Assembly: GCA_051362555.1 (NCBI GenBank)
Contig: CM120640.1
Coordinates: forward strand, 46,106,788 to 46,170,787
Direction of reading: 5' to 3'
Length of the DNA: 64,000 nt
From: Lingula anatina
Taxonomy: Eukaryota; Animalia; Brachiopoda
The position numbers and the translations under genes were made by a program. Under the pieces are notes generated by a model. The model was not told the DNA's origin. It was given only the letters and a program-made list of their open reading frames with translations, and searched no databases. Below, in pieces: positions 1,112 to 64,000 of this stretch (positions are counted from its first letter, which is position 1; every line of letters starts with the position of its first letter).

Positions 1112-2750
1112 GTTTGAGACAGCCATGCAACGGCATGAGCCTGGAGTGACTTTGCCATATTGGGACCCGACCATGGATGACGGTATGCCCCGCCCACAGG
1201 ACACCATTATGTGGACTCCTGAATATATGGGAAATGGTTTCGGTTACGTCACGAGCGGGCCTGCCGCCAACTGGAATACACCATTCCCCGTCGCCAACCG
1301 TACTCGCCTGTATCGCAACCTAACTGCTGGGGTATTGGAGGGGCGTGTGCCTCTTCTTCCCAACGATCTAGAAATGGGTTTCCTCTACGCCGGTGGTAGG
1401 GGTCTAAGGGATCTTTCGTTTTACGTCGACCCTTCTCTAGAGTTTGTCCACGGTCGTGTCCATGACTGGATCGGTGGCCACATGGGAGATTTAGAAAACG
1501 CACCAGCTGACCCTGTTTTCTACATGTACCATGCTTACCTTGACTGCTGGTGGGATGACTACAGGCAAAAGCAAAGAAGTCTGGGGATCAATCCCGAAAC
1601 TGATTACCCCGAAGACGCTGAAGCCCAAGGTGTTGGCGGCACAACCCCTCTCCCTGAGTGGCCCATTCCTACCCGCGTTGAAGACTCTGTTCATCTGCCG
1701 AACAAGATGATGCGACCTTTCAGAATTCGTAATATCGATGGATTGTCGGACGACTACACCAGGCTATATTACTCCTGTTCCCCACGCCCTGTCTGTCCAA
1801 GCTGCAACAACTCGCCCATTCTTTTCTGTGACAATGCCCAAAATATACCGAAGTGTCGCACTAAACTGCAATTGAACACCAACTGCACTGCTTACAAGGA
1901 CTTGAACCCTTGTCACCAGGGTGAATGTTGCGCCATTGGAGTCGGCGATCAGTACATGTGCCGTTCAAGCTGTTCTTCTTTCGGGCCAGTAAGGCCAATT
2001 CATCAACTTCCACAACGACCTCAGGTACAAGGGCCACAGCAGACAGGGTTTGATGGTCGTCTACACAGAGGGCCAAACGACCAGTTGCCCCCACAGTATG
2101 TTCCAAACCAAATACCAAACTCAGTCAATATCCGACCGGTTCAAACCCCGCCATTAAACGACCAACCTCAGTACAACGTCCCATCACAAAACCAAGGTCA
2201 AAGGCCTGGTCAGTATAACGTTCCTTCTCAGAACCAAGTTCAAAGACCCCAGACCATCTATCAACCACAGTACAACGCTCCAGCCACAAGGCAGGCTCAA
2301 CCTATCCAGTACAGACAAACTCAATACATTGGACGTCCTCAGTCTCAGCAATCCTATGCTCCATCATACAATCAACAAAATTACAATCAAGCGCCTAACT
2401 ACCGACCAAACCAATATCAGAGTTCTTCCAATGGGCAATATTACAGACCTCCTAGTACAACATACCAACGTAACAATAACAACTACGGACAGCGTTACAC
2501 TAATCCAAGAACTTCCCTATATGTGAACCCTTTCACTGGGCAGCAACAGCAGTATCGCCAGGCTACGTACAGACAACCACCGCAGACTTCACTCTACGCA
2601 CCCGTTGGCCTCAACCGAAATCCTTACGGTCAAAGGCCTCAGTACCGTGCCCAACAGGCCTCTCCCGCCTACAACCAGCGTCCCGCCTCTCAGTCCTTCA
2701 CCATTCCTGGTCAAAATTATTACAACAACAGGGCGGCGAACTACTTTTGA
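1112..2750 (+). CDS. Tyrosinase-like (type-3 copper) protein, terminal exon; upstream exons with CuA lie outside the window
   Basis: Acceptor ttacag ends at 1111. The frame then reads FETAMQRHEPGVTLPYWDPT (tyrosinase LPYWD motif) and the CuB site HGRVHDWIGGHM...ADPVFYMYHAYLD, followed by a Cys-rich module and a low-complexity Q/P/Y/N tail to TGA at 2748-2750. AATAAA lies at 3078-3083. Confidence 0.92.
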
Positions 2751-8425: not shown

Positions 8426-11400
8426 CGTTCCTGCTATATTAAAACATAACAGAATATATTCAGATATATTACAAATTTCAACTAATATATATATATATAT
8501 ATATATATATACTGTGGGTATGTCTGATCTTCAGACAGATCATGCAACTTATGAGAAATACTTTCTAGTTTTTTAGGTACAACTGCACATTTACTAACAA
8601 CCTCAGGTGGCCTAAAATGTAATGGTTTGAATTTCTTTAGCACATTTCATTCACAAAATCAGTGCAATTAGTTTTATAAAGAATACAATGCTAAAATTGG
8701 CAAAATGGCTTCAAAATAATATCTGCATCATAAATTTGTTTTCTTGCCTCACCTTTCAATTTTTTCAACTTTGCTTTTGCAATTTTCATACAGTTCATTC
8801 CGAAGTTCAACCAACTGCCTAAAGTGGGTCTCCATTAATTTCTCTACTTTCATGTCTTTGGAATCTTCCCCTTCTTGTTCTCCTTCTTCTTTATGTAGTA
8901 AACTAGAAGTTAGAAGCCAGCAATTTCAAAACTGGGGTTCTTTTTCTAAAAAAATGGACCTTTCACCATGCAACTATCATGTACCTAGATCAAATTTTAC
9001 CCAGAAGGGACCTTTTCCCAGCAAAAAGGGCAGTTCGTTCCTGCTATATTAAAACATAACAGAATATATTCCAATATATTACAAATTTCAACTAATATAG
9101 CTTGGCATTGATGAGGCTAATGTCACCAAAGTACAGTATATACAACAAGTATTTTGTAAAAAATAATCTCATAAAGGTTTTTTTTAAACTGTGCACACAT
9201 GATGTTATCAATATTTAATAATAATTTTATTGAGCACAGAAAAGTTTTTACATCTAAAGAGTCTCTATATATATAGGATAATAGTAATGACAGTAAATAA
9301 AAAAATAAATATAGTATTATATGTTATAAAGAGATATTAATTCATATATTATAATAAATAAAATTTCATTAATATTATTGACATAAATTCATCACTTTCA
9401 TGATGCCCATGTTGCCAAGAACTGCATGTTGCATATGTAAACCTACCTTTTCCAGTATTTATCTGACAGATTTGGTTGTTGCCACAGTGGAGTGTGACTC
9501 TTCAGCAATTTGACTGCAGTTTGAAAGCTCTCTGCCACTACACCATGTCTCCTTGAAATGAGAAAGTAAAGAGAACAATCTAATATAAATATAAAAATAG
9601 TTCGATGAAAAGGTCCATTACATGTTTTATCCACTTGGTACCCGCATGGAGCTGCTGTGCATGTAATTAAAGCACATTCTGACTGAAGTTACTACAAAAG
9701 AATATGATCTATCATTTATGTTAATTATTATATACATTTGATTATCTTAAACTACTGTAAACTATTATATATGTAACTGCTAAACGCATTTGTGCACCCA
9801 CTGCCAGCAATGCTGTGGTTTTACAAAACATTAAAATAAACATTTTACTCTCAATTAAGCAGTTCTTTGTAAACATTAACCTACCTGTGCATAATGGAAG
9901 GCCTAAACTTATTTATAAAGCCTTTGAGATGACATTTTGTAAATTCCTTTTCCTTGGGGTCCACTTGCAAAAAATCATCCCAAGTTTCAAATTTTGGCTG
10001 TGTTGGAAGCAAGGGATGATTTTTACCCCCAGCAAATGTATTCAGAAATCGTCTGGATAGAAAAATGTTATGGAAATGAAAAATCCTAAATAAAAATATC
10101 TTTAACAAAATTGTATAAGTATACATGTATGCAAAACACACAGAAGTTTTTTTCAGAAATGGAACTAGATAAACAATATTCAAAGATAAATATGGAAACT
10201 CTACAGACATCTTAAAATACTCTAAAAGATAAAGTCTACAGGTAAATTATTGATAAAATACATACTTTTTCAACAGAGTTGACCCTGCTGCAGAGGAGCG
10301 CCGTAAATATGAACTTCTTCGGACCTGAGAAGGATTTTGATTTAATTCTGCAATGGTGGACAAATCTTTCAGCTTTCCTCCAGACATCAAAGAACTTTGG
10401 TGTCTTGATTCAGGAGACCTCCCTGGACTGACACAAGTTAAATTGCTAAAAGGGAGATTTCTGGAAAGGTGTAAATTGGATATGTTACATTATAATATCT
10501 AAAACAAAAAACATAAAATCGATGTTTGTATATAAAAATGGTAACATGGTTTTCATTTAGAAAGATAATTTAACAAAAGCTTTACCCTGTTGTACATGGT
10601 TGGTTTCCACTTTCTTCAAAAGGATCTTTTTTCAACTGTTTCAGAGTTTCCTGACTGAGGGGAACCTAAACAATTAATAGTATATTAATGAGTGCCATTA
10701 ATGACTGGATCAATTAATGAACAGATGGTAACTAGATGGTAAAAGTTTACAGCAATTTGACTTCTGGATCAGATGAATACCTGAGCAGGATGTAATTTTA
10801 TTTTATTTTCATGGTCATCATGATATTTTAATAATTCCACTTACTTTACTTTTCAAATGTTTTGTCCTCATGTTGGTCATGGAACAAAGCAGCATGTATA
10901 TGACCTTCAGCTCTTCCACAAAGTACTGCTTCTTTCTTTCATCCATGCGTCTGAAATTGGTGAATTATGGATAATCAGAAATGAGTGAATTTTGTTAGTC
11001 ATCCAGTAGAATAAAAATGATAAATATAAATAAGAGATCGGGTACCCAGTCCATCCAGGTCATTTACCGAGTGAAAGGTTTCAGGTTGAGACAGCAATGT
11101 TAGTCAGTTGCTAATTGTAAGTTCATATGTATCATATGAATAATCAGAGTTACATATGCAAAAGATAAAACTTAGTTCCAACATAATTATCTGTAAAATA
11201 TTTTTATTTTACATGACATAAAATTTATATACACATTTTATATTTAATTGCATTAACATGCTTTAATACACAACGTGAAAGGGCACATCATATATATAAT
11301 GGAAATTACAAGACATCAGTATGATTAGGCCAAGCCAGAAATTTATCAATACCTTTCATTATCTGTTTTCATTCTATCAGAAACTCTAAGAAGGAAAGCA

Positions 11401-16206: not shown

Positions 16207-19200
16207 TCACCTGTCACTATCACTTCCAGGTGAGCTTAAATCAGGGCAAGGAGGGCAAGTATCCGATGGCAATACAATGCTACTGTGGTCCTGTGATGGA
16301 CTTCTTGGCTCAAGAGACGTGGCTGGACTGGCTCTTGCTGTAGCATTGGCATCACAATCAACATTATCATTATGCATATTTTGGAGAGCAAGAGGATCAG
16401 AACCAGAACCAGGAAGTCCCTCCCTCTCCCCGGGACTTGAGGGCATCAATTCTGGCATTTCAGTCAGTTCCTGATTGGACCCTGTGAAATCTGAATCAGA
16501 GACCCCAAATTCAGCTGGAACATCACCATGAAGAAGATGGAAATTTTCAATAGGAGTTTCTGGTGGTAGGCAGTTACTTGTTTTCCAATGCGTTTTCAGG
16601 CCACTAGCACTGATGTATTTTCTATTACATTTGGGGCATTCATAGGGGCGCTCATTTGTATGCAACCTTTTGTGGAGTTTTAAATGGACAAACTGAGTGA
16701 ATTTTGCAGGGCAGAGTTTGCACTGAAAAGGTTTCTCACCACTGTGGAGTCTCATGTGAGTTTTCAAATTACTGGTGCTACTGAAACGTTTTTTACAGAC
16801 AGTACACTCATGTGGTTTTTCTCCTGTGTGGACAAGATAGTGCTTTTGAAGATGAGCAAGTTGGGTGAAACCTTTACTGCAAGTCTTACACACAAAAGGG
16901 CGTTCACCAGTGTGAGTACGTAAATGCACTTTTAGATTGGAAAGCTGACCAAAAGTTTTGGAGCACACATTACATTCATAGTGCATTTTTCCATCTTTCT
17001 TTTTCAGTGGAAATGGCAAGGAACGATAACCCCTCATGTTGTTTGCATTCAAGCTATTCAGCTGAAGGTCCATCTTTGGCTTGCTGAGGTTCAGAGCTTG
17101 GTCATGATGGGGGTGACTGGTCGTTGGGCTAACTTGCTGTATATTTTGGCTCAGGTAAGCATTTTGCATGGCTTGATAAGCAGGGTACAAATGATGCCAA
17201 GGCAAAGCTGCTGCATATTGATTCATAGGAAACATTCCGTTCATTGAATACAAATGGGCAAAGCCTGGGTGTTGGTAGAAAGGATAGAGTGGGCTACTGG
17301 CTGTAAGGCCAAATGGATGAAAGGGCGTGGGTGGGACTTTCCCCAGTAATCCTGGTCTCAGATCCGGTTTTAGATAACCTGGGAAGTCTAATTTTGGTGG
17401 GCCATGGGGAAAACTGGCAGGAGCATTGGGCAATGGTGGCAATAATTTGGCAGGCATTGGTGTTGAGCAATTTGGCAAATTTGGATGACTTGGTTCTGGT
17501 TTGATAGGCATCACGCCGTCTTTCCTCTCCTTTTTAATATCCTTTGTCATTGCTACAGTTTCTCCATCTTTTTCTTTTTCCTCATTTTTGATTTTCAATG
17601 CATCTAAGGACTGTTCATCCACTGTTTCTCCACTTTCTTTCATCTTCTTGATTAATAAATTCTCAATCATGACAGCACCTGGGCGTTTACTGGGTATCTT
17701 GTATCCATTTTTTGTGGGGAATCTTTCAAATGCACTGTCACTTTCATCTTGACTTTTTTCCGACCCTGGACTGCTGCATGGAAAGGGATCATGTTTGGGT
17801 AGTGGACTGGGGCATTGTTTTTTTAACATGTCGAATACCTCTTCCTTTTCTGGACTCTGTTTGGGCTGGACCTTTGGACCAACAGAACTGGGAACTGTCT
17901 GGGCAGTTGGCGCTGGATTTTGTTCTTCTTGTTCTTTCTCTGAAGTTGTCTCTAAATGATGTATTTTGGGCATTTTCTTTAGACTGAAGTCTATGACACC
18001 ATTTGGATCCTTTTCGAGTCTTGTCTGGCTGGTTCTGCTGTTGTTGCAGTAGTTTGGCATGGCAGGTACCCTGTGATTTGGAAGTTCTGCAGGGAGTGGG
18101 CTGAGTTGTTCTTCTAAATGAAAAAAATTAAGTTGAAAGGATTAAAGACTAAAATAAGCACTTTAGAATGTTAGTACAAATTTCATGATTTGAAGCAATT
18201 CATTCTGGTCTTACTGGAAGACTTCTTACTGTATCAAATTCCATGATCAATAATGACATGGAATTTGTAAAACCTTTTTTTTTTCCAAAATAATGTGCAG
18301 TTTCAAAGGAAATAAGTTTCTTATATGCTACTGCTAATTAAGAAAAATATTATTTTATGTAATGCATGTTACAAGTCTGAACATTTACAAAGTTTTTGTA
18401 AATTCATGCATTACTTTCTAAGCAAAAAAGATATAAAACATATATTAAACTTCCAAATGTTGAAAAGGTACAAAAAAAATAAATAAACATTTATCATTTA
18501 TTTCAGCAAGAATTTTCCAAACTGACAACTTTGTTCAACTGGCCATATAAAATATCATCAAAACTTACTCATTTTATACTTGTAAATCTCCTCAGCTGGG
18601 GGAATGTTCAGACGCTCAGCAAACTCCTGACAGTACCAGAACAAGAGCTCGGAGTCTGGAGGGATGGGCCTTACAGTGTAGAAATATATAGCATGGTCCA
18701 CCTGACAAACTACTATGTTCTGGGCCTGCTTGGAGGGGGCGCTATTCACATACCGAAGCCAGTTGCTTTTCTTGGGATCAAATATATTGACATACAGGTA
18801 CAGGTCATGGTTGTGGTGGACCTGAAAAATAAATCAAGTAATAATACAGCTGTAACATAAAGGAATGAAAAAAACTGCATACTTCTTTAAAAGGAAGAAA
18901 TGAATGAATGATAAAATTAATAAATAAATCAATTAAAATACCTTTTTATTATTCAGGTATTCTTTTGCCCCCCCCCCCCCCCCCCCCCCCAAATTAGACC
19001 CTTAATAGACAAAATAATGGCGACTGTAAACCCATACTCTGAGTGCATTTGGTGTTACTAGCTCATTGTGACAGTTGAGCCAAAGGGACATCCAAGTACA
19101 TTTGCATATTCCACCATTTATTATGTACAACTTTGGTAAAAATGTTTTTTTACAAGATTAGAAAACAGTGAACTGGAGATATAATCCTTTTTGGTTTTAA

Positions 19201-47100: not shown

Positions 47101-50052
47101 GTAAACACGATAAGTGGAACACAGTTTTATTTTTTGGTTTTATATTTACAGAGCTGATGAATATTCATAAAACGCAGGTCAAGTTCGAAAATCAGCAAGA
47201 TCGGGCCATTATTGTAGAAGTTATGCTGTTTTATCACTTTTCAGCATATATGCAACCCTGTTAACACATTTTAAGGAAAACCGATAGGCCTGTTGTCATG
47301 AAACTCACAAAAGTAATCAAGCTTACTAAAACGCAGGTCAAGTTCCAAAATTGGCATGATCGGGCCACTATTTTACTAGTTATGCTGTTTTTATCCTTTT
47401 TTTCAGCATATGTGCAACACTGTAAACACAATATAAGAAAAACCGATAGGCCAATTGCCATTAAACTCACAGGAGTGGTCAATCTTACTAAAATGCAGGT
47501 CAAGTTCAAAAATCAGCATAATCGGGCCATTATTTTAGAAGTTATGCTGTTTTTTCACATTTCCTCAGATTCAATTCTTAGGCATGTTAACAGTCTTATT
47601 ATTTTACTAATAAGATACATTAAAGTGTTTGTTTGACATTTCCTGCATCTTTACAACATTGTTAGTTGATTATGTAAAAATGATGGTAAACTTTTTATCG
47701 TGTATTGTGTAAGAAAGTGTCAAAAATGGAAATAAACTCATATCATTGCAGTTTGTCAGATTCAATCATTCACTATGTTCAGAATCTGAGAATGGAGGAA
47801 ATTGGACATTTAACACTATTCTATTGATATTTTTCCCATCTCATCAATTATCTTAGTTGATCATAAAAAAATTTCAGTAAACTGTTTATTTTGTTTTATG
47901 TTAAAAAAAGTGTTAAAAATGGAAATAAACCCATGTCAGAACAGTGCTGTCTTGTTTCACATTTCCTCAGATTCAATTCTTAGGCATGTTAACAGTCTCA
48001 TTGTTTAACTAATAAGACATGTAAAAGTGTTTGGTTGACATTTCCTGCATCTTTACAACATTATTAGTTGATTATGTAAAACTGATGGTAAACTTGTTAT
48101 GGTGTATTGTGTAATAAAGTTTCAAAAATGGAAACAAACTCATATCATTGCAGTTTGTCAGATTCAATCATTCACTATGTTCAGAATCTCAGAATGGAGG
48201 AAATTGGACATTTAACACTGTTGTATTGATATTTTTCCCATCTCATCAATTTTCTTAGTTGATCGTATAAAAATGGCAGTAACCTGTTAATTTTGTTTTA
48301 TGTTTAAAAAATTGTTAAAAATGGAAAAAAAAAAAAAACATTTCAGAACAGTACTGTCTTGTTTACATTTTGGCATTTTCAAGTTGTGACTTTGAAGTTC
48401 CATGGGCCTGAAGACCTTTGCTAGTCACATTTTCTGAATATCCATGATGCTAATATTTTATTATTAAAAATTGATGGTCATTATGCTGTTAAACATTATG
48501 TCATATTGCATCAAAATTTGAAAAAAATCTATTTTGGACACTGCTTCCATGATGAGCATTTAAGAAAAACCATGTCACTTACTGTTCTCAAACAGTACAG
48601 TAAATATGTACAGATGTGTCTGTACATATTGCCATCACCTGCATCTGTCGTCGCCGTCACTGTCACTGGTGCCGTGCACTTTCATTGTAAACATGATAAG
48701 TGGAAGTCAATTTTACTTTTTGGCTGTATATTTACAGAGCTGATGAATATTCATAAAATGCAGGTCAAATTCGAAAATCAGCATGATCGAGCCATTATTG
48801 TAGCAGTTATGCTGTTTTTTCACTTTTCAGCATATATGCAACACTGTAAACACATTTCAAGGAAAACCGATAGGCCTGTTGTCATGAAACTCACAGGAGT
48901 AATCGATCTTACTAAAACGCAGATCAAGTTCGAAAATCGGCATGATCGGGCCACTATTTTAGTAGTTATGCTGTTTTTTCATTTTTCAGCATATATGCAA
49001 CACTGTAAACACAATATAAGAAAAACAGATGGGCCAATTGTCATGAAAGTCACAGGAGGGGTCAATTTTACTAAAATGCAGGTTGAGTTCGTAAATCAGC
49101 ATAATCGTGCCATTATTTTAGAAGGTGTGCTGTTTTTTCACATTTCCTCAGATTCAATTCTTAGGCATGTTATTAAACTAATAAGATACGTAAAAGTGTT
49201 TGTTTGACATTTCCTGCATCTTTACAACATTGTTAGTTGCTTATGTAAAAATGATGGTAAACTTTTTATCGTGTATTGTGTAATAAAGTGTCAAAAATGG
49301 AAATAAACTTATATCATTGCAGTTTGTCAGATTCAATCATCCACTATGTTCAGAATCTCAGAATGGAGGAAATTGGACATTTAACACTGTTCTATTGATA
49401 TTTTTCCAATATCATTAATTTTCTTAGTTGATCATATAAAAATGGCAGTAAACTGTTAATTTTTTTTATGTTAAAAAAGTGTTAAAAATGGAAATAGACC
49501 CATTTCAGAACAGTGCTGTCTTGTTCAAATTTGATGTTGAATTTGCAGTTTAACATTATGTACTTTTGCATCAGAATTGGCAGTAGCCTATTTTGTGCAT
49601 AGTTATTTCCTGCTTTTTGTCTGTACATTTGACAGCTTTGCTGCCTTGTTCAAAGTTAAAAATGTTAAAACAGCATTGAAAGTAAAGACAAATCCCACTC
49701 AAAAAGGAGAGCATTGAAACTGTTTGGCACATTTATCTTGGAGTTTTAGGAAATTTGGAAAGAGGTGGTGGTTTTGAAGTTATTGGAGTGCCAGGTATAG
49801 ACTTTAGAGATCTTGAAACTGTTGCAATAACAGGATATTACATTTTGGAATTGTAATGCAGGGATGGCTTGAAACTGTTAACATAACTGAGGTTTTGGGA
49901 AAAAGTAGGTCAGTTAGTTGTGAGGGATATTCTTGTGATTATTGATTTTTTTTTTTTGGGGGGGGGCGGGGGAAGTGGGGATAGTGTCAGAAGAGATGGC
50001 TTTGTAACATTTAGAGATAAAATAAAACAGAAAATGCACACAAACAGAGCAA

Positions 50053-50113
<61 letters not shown>

Positions 50114-53100
50114 GAACATGCGCATGCCTGATGACAGGTCTATGAATCCCCAAAGTTTCACCTTCTCACTCTAATGGTCTTGGAAGAGATAGCAAAAATC
50201 ACTAACACACAGACTCACTAACAGATGCATAGATGGAAGGGTTTACATGATCACTGACTTTTGTTTCAAAAGCACAGGGATAATAATGTTAGTTGAATGT
50301 GAGTTCATATGTCAGAATGGTTTGTTAATTTTATTAATAGTTTATGTTGTTCTTAGAAGTTATTGTTGAGACTTGGATATGCTGCCTTCAATGTTTATAG
50401 ATGTTTCATTTGAAGCACCATTCGACAAATAACTAAAACTAAAAAAAATATCTGCGCGTGTTTGTACTTGACTAGATCGAAGAACAGATGTCACTTGAAA
50501 AAGGAAGAAAATCTGCTGCCCAGTCTGAAATGAAACTTGCTGATCCCAGTGACAAAAATGAAGGAGAGTCCAGTGCAGATGCTACAAATGGCAATGATAA
50601 TGGTGAAGGTCAAAATGAAGGTGAAGGTCAACTTGTAGATGACCAAGAAAGTGAAGCTCGAACAGAAAGGCAGTCAAAAAGTGAAGATGACAAACCAGAG
50701 ACAAGTACAGTCAATGAAGATACACTCAACAGCAAGAACAACAAAGAAGATGAAGAAAATGATGAGGAAAAGATAGGAAAAGATGAGCAGCCTTTGGAAG
50801 ATGAAAAAGGTTAATTTGTAGCAACACAATACTGCAATTATTTCTTTTAATCACATGTGTAATTGTAGCAGTGACTTGGGTGTTCATTCATATCTGCAGC
50901 ATGGATTTAAATAGAATTAGTTTTAAGTTATAATTGTTGATGTTGTTGTTGGTAACATGCCATGCAATCTCCGTTATACTATTTATGACCACTGTATAAA
51001 ACTAGTATCATTGGCTATATCTATTTTAATATGATATATTGATTCAATTGAATAATGCCAGTTTATTTTACTATATTATTTTTTTCTGTCAAGGTGACGA
51101 AGAAGAAAATATTGACCAAAAAATGGAAAAGTGGGAAAAAGAGAGGAAGTCTGTTCCACACATAACACTTGAGGAGCTGGAGGAGATGGAGAAGCCAGAA
51201 TGTGTTAAACTACTGGAGAAAGTGGCAAGTGAGCATGGATTTGTTGGAAGGTAATTTTATTGATCACAATAGCATATCTTTTTTCAATTTTTTTTCTTTT
51301 GTTTTAATAATGCTTTTTGTAAAATCATTGCAGATCTATGTTTGACAAATGTCAGCCAATCAGATATTTTGATGTATTTTTGTCTTTATTCTTAACACTG
51401 ACATAACAATAATGTTGAGCTGTTTATTGTTTCCTGCATTATAGAGATCTGCCAGGGACACCTTTTCAGTTTTATGTTTGTATTTTGGTACAGACATATA
51501 TAATTTCAAAAGGTCTACAGTTCTACATATAAAACTTGACATTGTCTTTATTTTAGTGTGGTGGTATCAGCCAAGGATTCTGATGGCTCAGTTCATGCAG
51601 CAGTGCAGTCATTTGTTAGATACCTGTTAGTCAAGAGACTGAGAGACAAACCAAAGACAGAAGAGAAGGACAACAAAAAGAAAAACAAGAAGAAAAAAAA
51701 GAAAGGGGATAATGACTTTGAACCCCTAGCAGAGGTTGGAATCAAGGAGGTATGCATGTTTTTTTGGGCAGTGGAAGGCACACAATGTGATGTGTTTATT
51801 TAATTTGTCAAGGCAGTATCAAAAGTAGTTTGTAATTAATTTGTAAAAAGTAGCACATGTGGAGTACGTAGAGAGATGAAGTGCTGGCCAACAGGGACTG
51901 GCTGATAAGCTGAAAATTTTATGGCACAGACTGATTTTCAGACATTTGTTGGAATTCGGACCACTTAACACTCCTTTGACTGTAGTTGCAAACTGATTCA
52001 ATAACTGTTTGAAATTTTTCAGATTTTTGCCAAGAATTTAAGCTCATGCCTTGTTTACATTTGTGATCTATCTTCTATTTTTTATTATCTGATTGTTTAC
52101 CAGCAAACAGATCTGTTTTCACTCCCTTGATCTCTTAATTTTCCAGTTTGATGATCTGTTCAACAAGTGCAACATGCCCATCAAGAGGTCAGAGGACTTC
52201 AGTATCTACTATGAAGTACTTTTACATAAGTTTAAAGTGGCCTGTCTTGATGCACAGGTAATACAGGCTCTCAATGCAGACAAGCGTAGCCTGGAAGACT
52301 GTATTACTGGCCTGAAAGAAGCCATTGGAACAGGCAAAGAATTACAGGTATGGTGGATATTTATCGGCAGATCTTAGTTTTTGTTTGCATTTGCTTGACT
52401 TTGTTCCACACGCATGCATGTGAAAAAATCTTTTAACTTTCCCTGCCATAGGTTATATGCACATGAAATGTGAAGGAAAACATACAATTGTGAAATAAGT
52501 AATAAGTCACTTGCATTCCTTTACTGTCTTCGTCTTCTTTCTTGTTGTATATAAATCTTAAATTATGAACCATCTGCTATGTTTCAGATGGAGGAGGATG
52601 ATGGTTTTGTCAAACTAGTCCTGACCAACCCTAGAATGAAACTCAAAGCACAGATCAGAGACATTCTGGATGTCTTCCATAAAGATGTGAGCTGTTATTT
52701 TTTATTATATAGTAATTAATCAGTGGGGTGATTTGGTTAAGATTTCAGAATGATGAGTAGTGAGTAGAAGTCATAGTTGTGAAGTGGTACTAGAATTAAT
52801 AAATGTAGCAGTAGGAGTGCTACTAACACATATAGAAGTAATAGTGGTAATCCACAGTCTTCTTTTCATTTCAGTTTTCCGTCCTATGTAAAACTGTCCT
52901 CAAGGAGTGTCCTCGTCTAAGTGTAGCCTTGAAACATCTGGACGACAAAATAGCCACCCAGAGCGAGCAGGCCTGGGACATCATGACTGAGGCCGGCAAG
53001 TCCAAGAAAGATGTCCGAGACATTATGAACACTGTTGATAAGAATAGAGCAAGGATTGCCAGAACTCAGATGCTACTTACAGAGTGTCTGGATGCTGTCA

Positions 53101-53141
53101 GCAATTCTAGCAAAAAGATTGAGGCAGCTTTGATATGGTGA
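44163..53141 (+). CDS. Atypical Ras-superfamily (Rab-like) GTPase fused to a C-terminal helical domain, ~581 aa
   Basis: Exons: 44163-44196, 44487-44534, 45055-45147, 45556-45681, 46084-46277, 50476-50809, 51094-51250, 51557-51749, 52147-52347, 52588-52686, 52875-53141 (1746 nt, all GT-AG, in frame). Motifs: G1 FKIALVGDTEVGKSS, G2 YRPT, G3 LWDLPGRE, RabF-like YYKDLDAAIVVVDLT, G4 LLLGNKYD, G5 VSAK. AATAAA lies at 53741. Confidence 0.9.
46994..49650 (+). mobile_element. Non-autonomous Helentron-type element, concatemeric copy B, in intron 5 of the Rab-like gene
   Basis: Termini match copy A: TTTTTATGTACAGACAC-AGAT-ATGTCTGTACAT at the 5' end and TGTCTGTACATTTGACAGCTTTGCTGCCTTGTT at the 3' end. 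Core repeats start near 47172, 47331 and 47493 (period 159-162). A second internal head lies at ~48608. Confidence 0.82.
50055..50110. repeat. (AAT)n microsatellite
   Basis: Perfect AAT run. Confidence 0.95.
50112..50287 (-). mobile_element. Degenerate 5' fragment of a second HINE-like family
   Basis: On the - strand it reads ATTATCCCTGTGCTTTTGAAACAAAAG (hairpin-like head), then a degenerate tetranucleotide run (ccatctatgcatctgttagtgagtctgtgtgttagtg), then ...gaaactttgg. This layout is typical of such elements. Confidence 0.4.
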
Positions 53142-54104: not shown

Positions 54105-55307
54105 TCACACAACCGGCAGCGTCCGTCGGAACACCCTGTTCTCTTCTTCTAATCTCAAGACCTCGCCCTCCGCGGCTGTAAGCTTGATCTTCAGTTTAGA
54201 ATTCCTTTCGCGAAGTTTATCCCGTTCGCCTTTCAAGTCCGAATTTTCGAGTATGGATTTCTGTATATTGTTGTGATAATCTACAAAATTCTCAACGTGA
54301 GCCCTAAGTTCTTCTATGCCGCGCTGTAAAGCGTCTGGGCGTTTCTCGCTGTTAATGTAACCTTTTTTGGTAATAAGTGATAACATCGTTTCAATTTCAT
54401 TCTCGGTGTCGGCAAGCGTTCTTTCCAGTTGTTTGACTTCGACGTTTCGTTTTCCCAGTTCTTTTGTTTCAACATCATGAATTTTGTTGAGCTCTTTTAT
54501 TTTCGCTTCATTTTTATCCAGTTGTTTCTGCACTGTGAATCGGAGATCGGCAAATGTTGACTTCAGAGACGCTGACTTTTCTAGTTTTTTCGTCTCTTTC
54601 TCGCCATTTCTGCTTCTTACGTGATTAGTGAGATTGATGATATCATTATTAATGAATTCAAGTAAATCGTCTGCGTCACGTAATCTCTCTGTTAATTCCA
54701 TGTTTTCATTTTCTTCTTTTGAAAGTTCTGCACTTTTGTCTTTGAGCTGTTGTTTAAGAGATTGTATTTTCTTTTCAAGCTGGGATATTTTTTCGTTTTT
54801 CTCGGCTAATTCTTCCTCGAGTGGTATAACCTCTCGCAGTTGTCTGTCTTTCAGGTAAGTCTCAAGCTGTGCTATCCGCTCTCGATGCTACAATTTAAAT
54901 TTAAATTTTAGGCTATATACTTTTTTGTAGAAATATTTCACTTTTGACTTATAAATGTGAAAAATCCATGACAATTTCCAATTATATTTTCAAATGAATG
55001 CTAGGACTAGAATTGTTTTTCTTTCGTCAGTATTTTCACATATATGAACAATTATGGTTAACATCCATCTACATGGGTACTTACATATAAATACATGTAG
55101 TAACTTATAACAAGGAAGTCGGAAGGGTCATATCTACCGCCTTGCTTATAACAACAGAGCACCTACCTCCCTATTTCTCTCCTTGAATACCTTATTCTCT
55201 CGAAGTAGCCAGGGTATATCAATCTGTGTGTGCCCGCACGCCGTGTGAGGACGGAGGTTTGGGTCTGTAGGAGAGTGAGAATGCGCGTGCCCTGTTTTCT
55301 TCAACAT
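54105..55307 (-). CDS. Uncharacterised coiled-coil protein, ~307 aa, 2 coding exons
   Basis: Exon 55307-55167 (MLKKTGHAHSHSP...ENKVFKERNRE, GT donor) splices in frame to 54887-54105 (HRERIAQLETYLK...RVFRRTLPVV*). It has an E/K/L heptad-rich composition and extends the 198-aa track ORF. Confidence 0.8.
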
Positions 55308-57892
55308 TTTGGTCTACAATTTAAAAAAAAATTAAAGCAAGTGATCAGTGAATATAACATTGTATTGATAGATTTTTTTCTTTTTGTAGTGTTCAGGTGA
55401 TTGTTCGCCTGAGAATCGACACGACTAGTAAAGTTTCATTAATTCAGCATTTTAATATCGGCTTATCAAAGGTGGGCAAAATGGTATTTTGTCATCTACA
55501 TGTAGGTGACGAAGGCGTGTTTTCTAATTGTTTTAAAGAGTCTAGGCAGTTTAGCATCCAGGGCACTTAACCATAACTGAAGACAACTATGTGGATTCTT
55601 TTGCTGAAACTTGGATTTTACGGTAGGTTAATTTTTCGAGACACGCTAAATTTAGTGTCCTTGAAGGTCAGCTTGACACGGTTGATAAAATATATTATAT
55701 GTTGCGATTGCAGATTTAACAAAAAACCAAACTTTCCATTGTATACTCAACATGAACTTATGTTGAAAATAATTATACTTCAAACCACATGCCAAAAAGT
55801 GTCGCCTGTGATAAAACAATTCTGTGATTTTATAATAGCCCCTATCTACATAGCATGCTTACATACAGGGCTACAAATCGACAGAGTGCAGAGTGTATTA
55901 GAATTAAAATACGAACTACCCTGTAAGTTAATAAACTCATACTATTGACATACATGAATGCTATGTAACACAAACGAAAACTCTTGTAGGATCCTTGTTG
56001 GATGGTACCGAGTCCTTAATTTGTACAAAATTACCCCCGAATTCGTTGGCAAAAAGGCTAACTTAAAGGCGTTCCCCTCTACCTTACCTCCACTATTCCT
56101 AATGTAACAGCCGAAACATGGCGTCTCGTAGTCAAGGAACACTGGATTAAGTTTCGCTACGTGACCTTCATAAACACGGACAAGTGCACCGCTTCAAAAG
56201 GCTGTATTTATTCTTCCATTTAAAGCAAACGGAATGGTTTATACCTTAACATAATAGACGAATCGATGGAATGTAGCTATAAAGCGGGGGTTTAATGTGA
56301 ATATCAATTATTATACTGCATTGTTTATTTCGTGTAAATTATTCCATACTATATTGGATGTTTATCATCATTTTCAAATAATATGCACACAAAACCTCTT
56401 GATGCTTTTTCAACAAAAACACAACTGAGTTGGAATTGGTCTTTATATAAATAATTCCGTTGGTATCAATACTCGTACCTTTATCATTCTCTAATGATTT
56501 CCCAGGAAAGCAAGTGAAAAATCTAATTTTCAAACGGTGTTTTTTTTTTTTTTTTTTCGTATCAAAGCGAAACAAGACAACAATAGACAATGAATGTCCT
56601 TTGTAAAGTAATAAAAGGTGTAAAATTGATATTAGTTTTGCAAAATCTTTAAAACCTCTTTTTAACCTAATGAAGAAAAAACGTGTTCATACCACGAGGA
56701 AATTTGAATAATTTTCTTTTGGTTCAATTTTAAATTTCGATTTTCTTAAGGTTGTAAGATGAGAATGGGCCTTCAAATTCTGCTTCTAAAATTTTCAAAC
56801 CCAGAGCTACGTGCAAAATTTTCATAGCACACCCCCCCCCCCCCCCCACACACACACACAAAGACACGCACGCAACACACACGTCCTTAAATACCGTCGG
56901 AGCAAGTTACATGCCAAAGATTCCTTCTACTGTGACACAGGGTGTATCAATGTCGATGAACAAGTCCATTTGTTTACCTACGAATTTCCACAGGTACTAA
57001 GGCGTGTGAACTGCCACATATAGCTGAGAAGGGAAGTCATTTGGCATTATGCCGAGCATATTAAAAAGAGTTTGAGTCAATAAAGATTTTCTTCCTTTCT
57101 TTCTTCAATCATTTAAAGACAGATATAGATAGATGGAAATATTAATTAACATGTTTGTTTATCAAGTATCATCATCATCATCATCATTATTATTTTATTA
57201 TTATTATTATTATTTTCTAAATTAAGAAAACAACAGTTTTGGCTGTATTATCCATGTCAATTGCCCTCTTAAACCACAGAAACCCCCCCCCCCCTCTCCC
57301 ACGGATCCGGCCAAGGAAAAGCCCAAGCAAGTGGAGCCTTCGTTATTTATCCAGCAGTCGACAATGATCAGTCACCCAAAGCTGACCCGGATCTGCTTAC
57401 ACCTTCCAAAGAGGGAAGAACAAAAATAGTTACATTTAGTACGGATCTAGACGTACACACACTCTACATGGCCAACTAAGAAGAGGAGACTTTTCACTGT
57501 ATTTTTAAACACAAGGAAGTTCATTATACACAAAAACGAACAGGCATAATAAGATGAATATTTGGAAAATTTTGCGATTAGGGTAACGTTCTGCGTGTAA
57601 AAACCACCAAGGAAGTCATCATCACAGGTGACGGTCGTGAATCTCGGCCACACCGTCAGGCACACGTGATGGGTCGTTAAAGATGACGCTCTAAGTTTCA
57701 CCTTCAAGTAGTAGATTATAGCCAGGCAATGTTTAGGCCAATGTGGGGACTTTTATGTCACGTAAAATGCTACCTGAGAAGTGCATCAGGCTGGCTGTGA
57801 CACGGCCAGGTAAACACAGGTACGCTAAAAGAAGCGGCAAACAAGATATCCTTGGTTCGCATTCTAAACAGTTATTGTATTGAAGGGCATGC

Positions 57893-59137
57893 ATGGAGTC
57901 CCGTGGCATTCTACTATATTACCTATGGATCACTGTATCATTGATTCCAGTGACAAAGTTAAATGGTAAGTACGTTACAACAGTAAGTAAAAGTGTTAGT
58001 GTTTTAACAGTAAATTAAAATAGTCATAATTGATTTCACATGGTATAAGCCTAACAGCGTACTATATTTCATTGGGGAAGGAATTGTTTGCCTACAGACA
58101 ACGAACAATGATACACAGTGGCGGTCCGCACAGTGGCACACACATGATGGTCAACCTGTCCGTTTATCTGTTCATTCTCGATCATGTTACTCATGCGGAC
58201 CTCAATTAGAAATGTGCGGCCCAGGAATGCCGTTTAGCATGGGAGTCTCGGGCTGTCATTGTCCTATTGTGGTGACTCAAGTCAAGTTTCTCAGTGATGG
58301 AAGTCACCTCAAATCTATATATTTCAAACAGCAAAGGAAAAAAGAGTAAAAAGACGACAATTCAATTATCGACTCAGAAATTAGCAATATCCGCGAAAGT
58401 AATCAATATAAAGCGCCTACAATTTTTTTTTACCTTTAATTCGTTTAATCGATTGGAAGATTAACCGGATTGTTAATATTTTTATCATTATCATTGTTAT
58501 GATTCGTCACCTCAGTTCTACATTCCTTAAAAGTCCGATCCCACTGACCTTCAGGGTGAATTTCGCATGAATTACGCACAAAATTAGTTGATACTCGCTA
58601 AACATCCGCAATATGCTTGTATCATTCGGCCATCATCCGCACACGTCCACTCTTTTTCCGTTCCCGAGAATTTTTAGCTGCCCCAAAATTTGATTGCGGA
58701 TGACATGCGCAATACATCCGCAAAACATACACAATACATAAGCAGTACATATGCAATACAGGCGTTTGTTTCCGCACTTCTCTGCAACTCACGGGGTAGA
58801 TTGTCTGTGCACAGTATTCCGCAATAAGAAACGGACAGTTTCTAATGAAATTTTCAGGATAGGACCGCATGGGCCAAGGAAGAAGTGATTAGAAATTGGT
58901 GATGATTAATAAGTTAATGGTTTATTATTAGTTTATTATTTGTCTTGTTTATTATTTTGTTCGATATTGCATATAGTTATAAAAACCCTTAATTATAATA
59001 CAGTCGTATATTCATTCAAACAGGACATATCACATATTAAATGGCTCGTCTTTGTGTACTTTATAATTTTGTTAAAGTATTTGGGTTAAAAAACTTATTT
59101 TGCAATTTTGCAAATATCTTTCCTCTCTGAGCAATTG

Positions 59138-59193
<56 letters not shown>

Positions 59194-61526
59194 GTGATAT
59201 TTGTAGAGTGTCCTGCTCCCTTGAGTACTCGGATCCCAGGAGATGTCGAGCTCATCGGTATGTTCAGCCTGCACCTCCCCTCCTCCCAGCGTGGGACCCT
59301 GATAGGACAACCCCACAAAGACCAGCTTACCCCAGCGCTGCTCACTGCAGAGGCCGTCATATGGGCGTTGGAGGGGCTAAATCGACACGATTTCATACCT
59401 GGTGTTCGCCTAGGTAAAGCCTGTGTTGTGATGCCTATGATTTATTAGCGCCCACACCCTACTTTAAAAACATCAATTAATGTGGTGGGGAAATAAACCT
59501 GCATTTTCATAACTACAATCATGAAATTCGTCACAGATAAGGTTAATAACACTCTGAGTATGACGTTTATATGAAGGTACGTCGGAAAATCCTCTTACAA
59601 AATTCACAGATCACTGTTTGTGGTATTTCCAAATTATGAAAATGATTATTAGTTCCCACAAGCTTTTTCACTACATTGCTAGACCAAACTTACCAAGTTT
59701 GTGTGGGTGTTGACTACATGATTTCATGCACGGATCCAAATGTCACACTCGGTCCGTGCTGGGCATTGATTAATTACTGTAGAACTTAGAGTAGTGGCAG
59801 GTGTCGGGTAAGTAACAAAGAGGAGGTGGAACGGTATTGTATGGTATGGAGAATAAACTGCAATATACGACCTTGATGAGAAAAATGATGAAATATCCGT
59901 ACTTGAATAGAAAAATATTTTATTATTTTACATTAAAAACCAATGAGGTTATTTTTATAAAGAAGAAATTCGAACAGAAAAATGCAATGTACAAACTTGG
60001 AGAAAGGCCTACGTGTAACAAAATTCCCGATCAAAACAACATAATGCCCATTCTAGTCAACGGCGCATGTCTTACGATGTCATTGGACAAACCTCCACCC
60101 TATACTTGGCCAGACTCGAGAACTAGTTAGTGTCAACAAACTTTCCTTAACCAACGAGTAACACGATTTCAGATGTACCTCCTTGCCTTGACCTTGGACC
60201 CATAACAGCAACCTAAAGTTGTTCTAATTACTCCTAGCCCAAACGCATCCACATCCACACATTCTAACACGAGGGCCTGCTTCTTGAAAGCATCGATCGT
60301 CAGCTTACGAAATGATCCGTAACGAGGACTATCCATCAGAGTGTGAAACTCAGGGTGACAAGAGAAATGCAAAAGAAAACCGTGCCAATAAATTCCGGGT
60401 TTTTGACTATGAATAAGATATGATTTACCATAAATATTGGCCCTCCTCATAGGAGCATGAATAGTTAGGACGAGATTATGCCTCCCTGTTGGGGCAACCA
60501 TAGTTGTTAGCTTTACCGTGGTGTTCCTTGGCTTTCTACCGGGGACCAAAGAAATGAGTAACCTCACAGCAAAAAGAAAAGGTCTACTTTGCACTTTCCT
60601 TTTTTTCTCCAGTTTTCCATATTATGGCTCCTGGATCATATATGTTTTATTCGACAATCTCATTGTTGTTTGGAATGCCTGCGGGCTATAGTGGTTTGGC
60701 AGCTTTTTTCAGTATTGCTTTCTTTTGATATTTGATAAATATGTGGCAAACATCTTTTGGCAAATATGAACCGGTTACCCAGGCCCGCAGCCAGAGGGCG
60801 GGTTCGGGGGGTTCAAAAGAACCGCCCATTTTGTCAGGAAAAGGTTCATTCTGGGTAAAATTTGATCTAGGTATACATAGGTTTCGTTGTAAAAGGTCCA
60901 TTTTTTTTTTCAGAAAAAGAACCCCCCTTTTGAATTTGCTAGCTACGGGTCTGCATTTTTTATCAAAATAAATAATCGTTCACGAATCATGTTATTCGAC
61001 ATTTTAATGAACAATAAACATCCCTTTACAAACTAAAGAAAGAAATCGAAAGAATAAATGACCAATAAATGAATTGACGTATTGTAAACGCCAGTATACA
61101 CTGACATAGGACATCATAAAATTTCACTAATTTTTGATTGTATTTCTTGATTAGGTATAACTGTGTACGACATTGCGGGATCACGCCAGCTGGCAGCCAG
61201 TGTTGCTTCCATCACTTACCAGAAGCTGAACAAAGACAGTGGTCCTTACCCCTGCAGAAGGCCCAGTAATGCTTCATTGATAGCAGGTAAAAATAATAAC
61301 ATTAATAATATACAGTGATGATGATTGTGAAATGCTATGGCTGAAGATTCTTTATTGCAACTAAATGCACCACTGATGTGGAGATTATGTTAATTACATA
61401 TTAATATGAATAAATACAACAGAATACAGAATATGAATGAGAGCAATGCACTTATAGATTTATTTATCTGTGAAAATATGAAGATATACATGTATTTAGT
61501 CTAACAATGAGAAGACTATGCTGTGC

Positions 61527-61572
<46 letters not shown>

Positions 61573-64000
61573 AATTTTTGAGGCAAACTTAGACTTCATA
61601 TTTACATTTTCAATTTCATAAACATCTTCGATTAAAATCTTTCGTATTTACACCAATATTTACCCATAACACTGCAGATATTTCTTGAAAATTACCTAAT
61701 GGAAGAACAAGCATTATTATGTGTTTTATTTTCTCTGTAGGTATCGTTGGACCAGGGCGAAGTAATTCAGCAGAGATTGTGAGCAACGTGTTGAAAGGCA
61801 CAGATATTCCGGTTTTATCCTACTCCAGTACATCAAATGCTTTACGAGATGTTGAAGAGCATCCTAATTTATTATTCACTGTAGAATCGGACAGACACCA
61901 AGTCCAGGTATGTTTTACTTTCATATTGATTTTAGTTTGATTTAATGTCATTGCTAAATGAAGATTTCGAATGTCAATATAAGGTGACTATAAGGTGTTT
62001 ACCATTATAAGCGACGCATTTAAATTCTAACCACCATACTACTCCATAATATCATTTTGAATATAAAACTGAGAAAGAATGGTATATATTTATTAGCAAT
62101 AATGAGATGACACAATAAATACCGATATCCATACAGTATGAAATGGTTGTCATATCATTTAGGCAATGGTTGAAATTCTGAAGGCTCTTGGATGGGACTA
62201 TGTAGCAATCGTATACACTAACGAAAACTACGGAATAAACGGATACCAAGAGCTCAAGGCGGCTGCGCAGAAAGAGGGGATATGTATTGCCACTCCCCGG
62301 ATAGGTAACTATAGCATCCCCCTGGCAACGAGCAGTGATCGTTTTGACCGAATCATATCGGATTTGGTACAGAGTGGAACGAGAGGAGTCATCTTTTTCG
62401 GCCTGCAGGAGTACGGTAAAAGACTTCTGGAAGCTAGTGCACGGCACCAAGATGCCCCTTCTCTGCTCATGTGGATATTTTCCGAGGCTTTGGCTAATAA
62501 TAATGCCTTCAGCGGTCAGACGCTATACGCCCTACAAGGAGGTCTGGCTGTAGCATCGGCCACAAAACAAATACCAACTTTTCAGAAATATTTTGTAGAC
62601 TTGTTATTCAACATTACCCGCGGTCACATTGTCACCGACCTTCGGCGCGTTTGGCTTGAAGAATACACCGTAGCTGCGTTTAGTTGTAAATTAGCAACCG
62701 CATTGGAAGCAAACAACCAACACACCAGAAACTGTTCAACGCTGTCTCGGACAGAAATACAAGATGTGGTTGAGGCAGGGTCCAGTTTGTACTTGGAAAA
62801 TGGCCTGAAAGCCGCTTACGCTTATGCTGCCTCGATAAGAAATGCGCATAGTGAGCTGTGTAACTCTCCTGGCGTATGTAGCAGCTTACGCGATATGACG
62901 CCTCTTCAGTGGATGCGGTATCTTTCTGGACTAAATATCACGCTGACAAATCATGACATTCCTTTCCTCCCGCCAGAATTAATTGGAAAACGCTTGATTT
63001 TTGAACAGCACGAGCTCACTTTCAACCCCGAGAGTCCAATTTACAAAATAAGAAATTATCAAAAGGATCGAACTATTGATGTGAGTTTATTTATCGTATA
63101 TTCTTAAAAAGGCGTTTATGTTTATAACAGCAATATCGAAGTTTCAAGATTACTTTGTTGAGTGAACTTTACAGTATTTGAAGATGTTTGTCCAAATTAT
63201 AATTAGTTGAACATTTGTTCAAATATGGAAGATCAAACCATAGTTTTATTTATAATTGAGTTGTTATAATAATTACCTAAATGATAAGTTATTTTTGTCT
63301 GCATTTTAGGTTGGCTTCTTTGATGGTCGTGAACTCGTACTGAACACTTCGAATATCATTATGTACAGATACGACTCCAACAATCAACCTGTAGAAGTTC
63401 AGGGGGAAAATTTGGACAGATCTACCTGCCCAAGAAAATGCGCAGAGTGTGTCAGGAAGAGTGAAGTGAAAGTTGCCTATAAACCGGGGCAGCATCTCAT
63501 CCTTGGGGTGTTTCCGATACATTCGTCAGATTGCACAACAATCCGACCGACTGCGAGCGTGCAATTGTTAGAGGCTTTCCTTTTTGCCATGGAGCAGATT
63601 TCTCAAAGGAAAGGAGTGATGCAAAATATATCGCAAGACTTAGATTTCGGATATCTTGCTCTTGACGACTGTTATGATGAATTCAAAGCCTTGCAAATAG
63701 CATGCGATATTTATAGCGGTAAACAGTTTGGTGACATTACCATAGACAGGAACTCATTAATTGGCTGGATAGGACCTCTATCAAGTGGAAACTGTCGACC
63801 GATTGCTTCGACTCTCCGACATGTACATGATTTACAGATCAGCTACGGATCAACCATAGAGGATTTCAATGACCGAAACCTTTATCCATATTTCATGCGG
63901 ACGGTTCCGACAGACGAACAACTGACAAGGGCCATTTTGAGTATATGTCAGCAGATGGGATGGACGTATGTCTCTATCATCCATGCAAGTCACGACTACG
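57893..64000 (+). CDS. Class C GPCR / mGluR-like receptor with tandem Venus-flytrap (ANF-receptor) domains, 5' part; truncated by the window edge
   Basis: Exons: 57893-57965 (signal peptide MESRGILLYYLWITVSLIP), 59207-59413 (IPGDVELIGMFSLH...EAVIWALEGLNRHDFIPGVRLG), 61155-61286, 61741-61907 (GIVGPGRS...PVLSYSSTS...FTVESD), 62163-63080 (LGWDYVAIVYTNENYGING...GICIA) and 63310->64000. The last exon contains a second VFT: PGQHLILGVFPIH...LDDCY...IGPLSS...QISYGST...YPYFMRTVPTD...GWTYVSII. Confidence 0.9.
59139..59191. repeat. (ATT)n microsatellite just upstream of the GPCR exon-2 acceptor
   Basis: Perfect ATT run ending ~15 nt before the AG at 59205-59206. Confidence 0.95.
60780..60953. mobile_element. 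Short TIR element (MITE) in GPCR intron 2
   Basis: Imperfect TIRs CAGGCCCGCAGCCAG ... CTAGCTACGGGTCTG. A partial second copy lies at 8912-9040. Confidence 0.7.
61530..61569. repeat. (GT)n microsatellite
   Basis: Perfect GT run. Confidence 0.95.

Follow-up and report, generated by a model that had tools for sequence, protein, structure and literature searches.

A tandem Venus flytrap gene of the brachiopod Lingula anatina predicted to encode a single-pass receptor related to class C G-protein-coupled receptors

In a 64,000-nucleotide stretch of the Lingula anatina genome (assembly GCA_051362555.1, contig CM120640.1, positions 46,106,788 to 46,170,787 of the forward strand; hereafter the window), a spliced gene on the + strand, running from 57893 to the window edge, encodes two Venus flytrap (VFT) domains in tandem. 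The original prediction, made from the DNA letters, had taken it for a G-protein-coupled receptor (GPCR) of class C, a classification not upheld by the database protein of the gene, P0001, which has one transmembrane (TM) helix and no seven-transmembrane (7TM) domain. We have high confidence in the single-pass architecture, and the gene likely encodes a type I cell-surface receptor and not a GPCR. The explanation we favour, at somewhat better than even odds, is that tandem VFTs of the metabotropic glutamate receptor (mGluR) type, predicted to bind L-amino acids, sit on a single-pass anchor with a disordered, tyrosine-bearing tail that is likely to signal.

The gene model within the window comprised six coding exons separated by introns that all had GT..AG borders and, when joined, gave 729 codons without a stop. 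Exon 1 (57893..57965, +) supplied the ATG and a hydrophobic signal peptide (amino acids (aa) 1-24) and was the same as the start of P0001. The first VFT (VFT1) began with lobe I in exon 2 (59207..59413, +; aa 25-94) and continued through exon 3 (61155..61286, +; aa 94-138), exon 4 (61741..61907, +), which carried the pocket residues S145, T168 and D188 (Pfam ANF_receptor, E 7e-11), and exon 5 (62163..63080, +), which encoded lobe II with Y216, E301 and C234 (codon 62283-62285; Pfam E 6e-21). Exon 6 (63310..64000, +), open at the window edge, held in a single exon the end of VFT1, a linker with three cysteines (63418..63450, +; aa 536-546; C539, C543 and C546), likely a mini cysteine-rich domain, and the first half of a second VFT (VFT2) that started at aa 553 (63469..64000, +; S658, T681, D701 and Y729; Pfam E 6e-26) and continued past the window. 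The ANF_receptor profile was matched from 53 to 108 in exon 4 and from 109 to 326 in exon 5, and restarted at profile position 2 in exon 6; neither NCD3G nor 7tm_3 gave a Pfam match in the window exons of the gene. The original prediction had thus rightly described a signal peptide, one complete VFT and a second VFT in one stop-free frame that is open at the window edge and enters neither a nine-cysteine domain nor a 7TM there, and it had placed the linker correctly; it was also right about the second VFT, whose start needed shifting, as the sequence it quoted from about 63472 begins at 63475 (aa 555). VFT1 and VFT2 of the query were 26% identical (E 8e-13). Exon 5 matched mGlu8 (E 2e-19) and exon 6 matched mGlu5 (E 9e-17), and the PDB sequence matches of the two query halves (best 60 of 97 and best 60 of 78) were mGluR, T1R and CaSR, with mGluR ectodomains on top.

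The gene is transcribed and spliced. RNA coverage up to position 64000 was examined in eight out of nine runs, chosen by species label (X3 was left out). Reads from X6 to X9 covered all exons and the joints for introns 2-5, including those on both sides of exon 3; X4 and X5 were sparse, and X1 and X2 had almost nothing on exons. The intron-5 joint, which links lobe II of VFT1 to the linker exon, was spanned by 2, 3, 10, 13 and 15 reads in X5, X6, X7, X8 and X9, respectively. The X6 run was stranded and fitted + strand RNA, and depth from about 57427 in X6, X8 and X9 delimited a transcribed 5' leader with an approximate start (57430..57892, +). The intron-1 joint was not among the RNA joints listed, its acceptor abutting a repeat skipped by the tool. 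As had been proposed, the VFT1-VFT2 junction lies inside one exon: RNA depth was continuous across exon 6 and, in the runs examined, no joint fell within it. We considered and rejected both an assembly artefact and the fusion of two adjacent genes, because RNA reads cover the single exon that contains this junction and because 46/47 relatives conserve it (see below). As a separate observation, a low RNA depth over 58562-59242, in intron 1, was seen in X6, X8 and X9 and would correspond to unspliced RNA or to an alternative 5' exon.

P0001 comprises 1177 aa, and 727/729 residues of the window model were the same in it. Its layout is a signal peptide, VFT1 (31-519), C539/C543/C546, VFT2 (553-1017), a second cysteine triplet (C1027/C1032/C1035), a TM segment (1050-1074) and a 103-aa tail. 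One hydrophobic segment followed the signal peptide, and the tail was hydrophilic with five tyrosines. Pfam found ANF_receptor twice (E 7e-92) and nothing else; 7tm_3 was detected neither by Pfam nor by hydropathy nor in the structural model of this database record, whose downstream part lies outside the window, and NCD3G was not found by Pfam. Likewise, the tail had no kinase or cyclase domain, matching no Pfam family along its 103 aa and showing a predicted local distance difference test (pLDDT) score under 50. The AlphaFold model of P0001 (pLDDT 83, predicted template modelling score (pTM) 0.71) had a single TM helix at 1051-1081 and a disordered tail. Because P0001 ends in one TM and a short tail, with neither 7tm_3 nor NCD3G, the gene is likely not a GPCR; the original prediction had itself held that, if no 7TM followed downstream, the protein would belong to another class of receptor or be secreted, and P0001, on which we judge it, shows no 7TM. 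Word-based protein searches over 404-5000 aa returned no longer form, a weak negative, given that such searches are insensitive (two found no single-pass relative, while phmmer found dozens). In the ESM Atlas, the top cluster (0.96, 105 members, most commonly Mollusca) had ANF_receptor in 100% and no 7tm_3; this cluster may be the one to which the query itself belongs.

Searching with exon 6 by phmmer yielded 1877 matches, the best 150 of which were surveyed with our own VFT profile and hydropathy to score layouts; since scores summed over domains give repeat proteins an advantage, these counts cannot be taken as prevalences. Two VFTs followed by one TM were found in 49/150 proteins and 47/150 were kept, after P0117 (unrelated by eye) and P0066 (whose last VFT groups with a GPCR repeat) had been dropped. 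Another 20 combined two or more VFTs with at least 5 TMs, and 15 of them, with 2-5 VFTs, were kept as multi-VFT GPCRs (P0094 and P0140 were not in the 7TM tree, and P0065, P0101 and P0127 fell outside the clade). The multi-VFT class C GPCR that had been envisaged therefore exists in invertebrate relatives, though the query gene likely does not encode one. Pfam scans and name look-ups each covered 30/150: all 18 scanned single-pass proteins lacked 7tm_3 and NCD3G, and all 7 scanned multi-VFT 7TM proteins had 7tm_3 without NCD3G. The single-pass layout was found in molluscs, a brachiopod, an annelid and a bryozoan, its named members coming from Batillaria, Bulinus, Haliotis, Patella, Solemya, Potamilus, Saccostrea, Lingula, Dimorphilus and Watersipora; the named multi-VFT GPCRs were from Tubulanus, Lineus, Physella, Octopus, Pecten, Saccostrea, Limulus, Saccoglossus, Anneissia and Branchiostoma. 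Most members of both groups are labelled uncharacterised or hypothetical in databases. One single-pass member, P0031, is an intron-free record of 1246 aa on a 4249-nt contig. The query shares the features that define this family, namely a signal peptide, two VFTs, a three-cysteine linker after each, one TM and membership of its clades.

This last point came from two trees, one built with IQ-TREE from 60 VFT units of 26 of the 150-plus proteins and one with FastTree from 161 units, near-complete domains only, which agreed on the placements. In the IQ-TREE analysis, the single-pass VFT2 clade included VFT2 of the query (99/97), and VFT1 of the query belonged to the single-pass VFT1 clade (93/89); with both VFTs in its clades, the query can be placed in the single-pass family without reference to its own C-terminus. 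The single-pass VFT1 clade had as its sister the first VFT of the 5-VFT GPCRs of lophotrochozoans (99/92), the first VFTs of deuterostomes branching outside (97/97), and the 7TMs of the 15 multi-VFT GPCRs formed one clade apart from the mGluR and CaSR/V2R rows (100/100). Long branches met at two places in the 60-unit tree. The single-pass family appears nested among multi-VFT GPCRs, and this nesting suggests that the 7TM of such a class C GPCR was lost in early lophotrochozoans.

We then considered the ligand pockets. The Ser, Thr, Asp, Tyr and Glu that bind the amino-acid backbone, at positions assigned by mGlu1 numbering, were complete at the sequence level in both VFTs of the query (S145/T168/D188/Y216/E301 and S658/T681/D701/Y729/E814), so that both are likely able to bind ligand, as had been proposed. 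CaSR counterparts are S147/S170/Y218/E297, according to PMC8115157. All five residues were present in 33/42 family VFT1 and 34/43 VFT2 units and in 7/9 single-VFT GPCRs, as against only 2-4/8 for every repeat position in the 5-VFT GPCRs and 0/4, 2/9 and 1/7 in the units of other multi-VFT GPCRs. In mGluRs of classes I-III, Arg78 and Lys409 serve to contact the side chain of glutamate. The Arg78 column held T and L in the query VFTs, and Arg was not among the six commonest family residues; the Lys409 column, whose placement is less sure, held Y and L. In class IV mGluRs, conservation of the backbone residues with loss of Arg78 has been read as binding of a non-glutamate amino acid (PMC6307864). 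A ligand of the amino-acid type is thus probable on the pocket residues, and for both query VFTs we predict L-amino acid ligands, with glutamate excepted.

In the linkers, three cysteines followed VFT1 in 46/47 and VFT2 in 43/47 family members, 44/47 family linkers having exactly three, and a lobe-II cysteine was present in 42/42 VFT1 and 42/43 VFT2 units. The P0001 model superposed on mGlu ectodomains with a Z score of about 42 and a root-mean-square deviation of 2.0-2.5 Å over 420-450 residues, and the structural alignments ended at C1035, equivalent to mGlu3 527 and mGlu5 530 (1036 being equivalent to mGlu2 519). In the model of a second member, P0033 (pTM 0.78), they ended at C505 and C987, again equivalent to mGlu5 530 and mGlu3 527. 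The disulfide pairs that join the VFT to the cysteine-rich domain (CRD) in those receptors are mGlu3 C240-C527 and mGlu2 C234-C518. With VFT1 superposed, several mGluRs had their first CRD residues on a loop of VFT2 (881-884 in P0001, 844-847 in P0033). In class C receptors, one CRD cysteine, within the apical module, bridges to the VFT (PMC11362167). Rather than a featureless spacer, the linker thus seems to be a reduced vestige of the nine-cysteine domain; its third cysteine likely keeps the staple to lobe II, with C234 as the predicted partner. The disulfides expected in the query are C234-C546, C539-C543 and C747-C1035. On these models, a stapled head-to-tail stack, with VFT2 under lobe II of VFT1 where the CRD normally sits, is quite likely, the high pTM implying that the models are confident of the relative placement of the two domains.

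The original prediction had offered an intramolecular VFT pair. Both AlphaFold models placed VFT2 at the CRD position, below VFT1, and the mean hydrophobic count at three helix-C positions, chosen as presumed sites of the dimer that class C GPCRs form through the hydrophobic helices B/C of lobe I, was 1.5 in VFT1 and 1.8 in VFT2 vs 2.9 in 9 single-VFT GPCRs; for these reasons an mGluR-like pair within the chain is disfavoured and seems unlikely. Such degenerate helix-C sites are compatible with a dimer of another kind. A complex prediction with two copies of VFT1 (aa 31-530), in which the alignment went unused, scored 0.16 against a mark of 0.32 and is evidence neither way.

Tail lengths differed widely among the 47 family members, from 18 to 756 aa. 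The motif Y-[LI]-x-P occurred in 28/47 tails vs a shuffled mean of 2.4 (0/500 shuffles reached it), and class I PDZ-type ends in 13/47 vs a mean of 1.3 (maximum 6 in 1000). Y-x-x-[ILV] was weakly enriched (31/47 vs 26.5), and Y-x-N and P-x-x-P were not clearly enriched over the whole 47 tails. YxxP is a docking pattern for SH2 domains. By analogy, output through tyrosines and adaptors is conceivable, and we put it at slightly under even chances; it is the weakest step of the explanation, and it is argued from relatives because the query tail has neither enriched motif. A long-tailed subfamily (P0030, P0049, P0056, P0058, P0061 and P0075) shared its last four residues, which form a class I PDZ-type end.

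Taken together, the favoured explanation would work as follows. Each VFT would be followed by a three-cysteine remnant of the CRD, and, because its third cysteine would be stapled to lobe II, VFT2 is predicted to hang head-to-tail below VFT1 and to rest on a membrane stalk. Ligand would close the clamshells and the staples would pass the movement down the stack, changing receptor clustering; a separate kinase might then phosphorylate the tail tyrosines, to which SH2 adaptors would be recruited, and PDZ scaffolds would join the output in one subfamily. More tentatively, the VFT plus three-cysteine staple may be the stackable unit of a branch of class C in invertebrate bilaterians, with one arm that would have retained the 7TM and come to bear 2-5 VFTs and a lophotrochozoan arm that would have lost the G-protein module and be a two-site amino-acid receptor with phosphotyrosine and PDZ docking, possibly a coincidence detector or a partner of the 5-VFT GPCRs.

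Several observations weigh against this explanation. The TM and tail of the query are known from one predicted record (a cluster of 1) outside the window, and that tail, with five tyrosines only, lacks both Y-[LI]-x-P and a PDZ-type end. The tail motif counts come from related members and lack phylogenetic independence, pockets are incomplete in roughly a fifth of the family VFTs, and the disulfide and the stacking were deduced solely from where the structural alignments of predicted models end. As regards the origin, monophyly of all multi-VFT units vs single-VFT receptors lacked support (26/22), and when the family TM was compared with TM1 of the multi-VFT GPCRs the mean was 7.7 bits for the 47 real segments, 6.1 for 235 shuffled ones and 11.2 for 8 single-VFT GPCRs.

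Of the other explanations, the one we take most seriously, although we consider it unlikely, is a protein for capture, clearance or adhesion that does not signal: its clamshells would retain amino acids, peptides or a partner at the surface, and trafficking would be all that the tyrosines of the tail direct, by analogy with NPR-C, the clearance receptor for natriuretic peptides. The lack of a catalytic or folded cytoplasmic domain, the very uneven family tails, the query without Y-[LI]-x-P and the third ESM Atlas feature match, to a natriuretic peptide receptor 3 cluster (0.92), all fit such a role. It is harder to reconcile with the persistence of Y-[LI]-x-P and PDZ-type ends across molluscan classes, the weak enrichment of the usual sorting pattern Y-x-x-[ILV], and the near invariance of the lobe-II cysteine and three-cysteine linkers, a coupling device in class C receptors. 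Somewhat less probable still is that the protein would be the ligand-binding co-receptor of a related 4-5-VFT GPCR whose 7TM chain couples to the G protein, after the division of labour between ligand-binding and G-protein-coupling chains in GABA-B1/B2. Pockets complete in about 79% of single-pass VFTs and mostly incomplete in multi-VFT GPCRs are what it would lead one to expect, both types are present in Saccostrea echinata, and in the tree they are sister lineages. Against that, the named single-pass proteins were all lophotrochozoan while the GPCRs also occurred in deuterostomes and Limulus (30/150 matches looked up), and single-pass tails carry conserved motifs of their own.

A multi-VFT class C GPCR of which P0001 would be merely an incomplete model or a shorter isoform seems very improbable as the product of this gene. 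There are indeed 15 relatives with 2-5 VFTs, the same three-cysteine linkers and 7TMs in one clade, 7tm_3 being recognised in all 7 scanned, and truncation of this kind does occur, P0066 looking like a cut-off GPCR model. Both query VFTs, however, group with the single-pass clades and not with GPCR repeats, P0001 has a complete hydrophilic tail after its TM, the word-limited searches recovered no longer form, and intron-free relatives such as P0031 show the single-pass layout.

Among known systems, mGluRs, including the invertebrate class IV, were the best sequence and structure matches for both query VFTs; the query keeps their backbone-binding residues and the position of the VFT-to-CRD cysteine and has lost Arg78 as in class IV (PMC6307864), but it differs in having two VFTs per chain, three cysteines instead of nine, one TM instead of seven and degenerate helix-C sites. 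The multi-VFT GPCRs (for example XP_074641006.1 of Tubulanus, 5 VFTs; XP_002735016.2 of Saccoglossus, 4; XP_035696128.1 of Branchiostoma, 2) share with it the VFT plus three-cysteine unit and the absence of NCD3G, their first VFT being sister to the query VFT1 clade, whereas they end in 7tm_3, have mostly degenerate pockets and have Y-[LI]-x-P in none of their C-terminal tails. NPR-C/NPR3 has an ectodomain of the ANF_receptor fold, one TM and a short non-catalytic tail, with a single, peptide-binding domain; the listed PDB matches of the query are mGluR, T1R and CaSR instead. Venus kinase receptors are, like the query, invertebrate proteins with VFT and a single TM, and are activated by L-amino acids (PMC3703292; see also PMC2680970), but they combine one VFT with an intracellular tyrosine kinase, which the two-VFT query lacks. 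SmGBP of Schistosoma mansoni, as described in PMC3206071, derives from an mGluR, has no 7TM, binds ligand, dimerises and is found at the surface; at 488 aa, it differs in having one VFT and no cysteine-rich linker, C-terminal TM or tail. By analogy, the logic of the query would be nearest to Venus kinase receptors without the kinase, SmGBP and NPR-C.

In reviews, the class C plan of metazoans has a single VFT in each chain (PMC12716839). No description of the multi-VFT GPCRs or of the two-VFT single-pass family was found in the main text of openly available full-text papers. The accessible portions of PMC12716839, PMC6307864, PMC9138782 and PMC2246102 describe neither architecture, and the supplementary receptor lists of the first two may include such proteins. 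The receptor family is apparently undescribed, though its domain layouts are visible in public annotation. The data point to two conserved departures from the one-VFT plan: GPCRs with several VFTs, spread over invertebrate bilaterians, and a derivative with a single TM, present in molluscs, brachiopods, annelids and bryozoans, whose two pockets look intact. Should these pockets bind amino acids, the derivative would be a candidate for a system of nutrient sensing or chemosensation in oysters, abalone and similar animals, and it would offer a natural test of domain-to-domain relay of VFT closure without a dimeric 7TM. If the proposed output is true, it could be a case of a GPCR that switched its output module to become a kinase-recruiting single-pass receptor.

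The survey also yielded some minor observations. P0083, from the nematode Romanomermis (2849 aa), had 4-5 VFTs and a below-cutoff 7tm_3 fragment; the multi-VFT branch may extend into nematodes. Partial VFTs in long strings were seen in P0007, P0012, P0017, P0022, P0023, P0101 and P0127, with NCD3G in P0007 and P0012; P0101 is fish V2R-like, and these strings probably stem from gene models that merge tandem vertebrate genes and do not resemble the three-cysteine family. P0156, from Lingula, bears the source name 'rabankyrin-5' and yet falls in a 90% cluster with the two-VFT single-pass P0026, likely a misnomer.

Elsewhere in the window, a short repeat in intron 2 of the gene (60795-60953) had a second copy, 82% identical and on the opposite strand, at 8915-9039, and is likely a small non-autonomous transposon; RNA reads with unlike flanks piled up on it, so the repeat is multi-copy. 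Frames of repeated units at 47265-47636 and 48425-49207 (+) are probably a non-coding tandem repeat, and several short frames at about 50476-53141 (+) resemble exons of another gene. A 260-codon coiled-coil frame lay at 54105-54887 (-), with all Pfam matches below cutoff. A 605-codon frame at 933-2750 (+) encoded a tyrosinase domain (E 2e-17), then a Cys-rich segment and a long Gln/Pro/Tyr-rich tail, and a 644-codon frame at 16207-18141 (-) encoded five C2H2 zinc fingers and presumably resembles PRDM1/Blimp-1.

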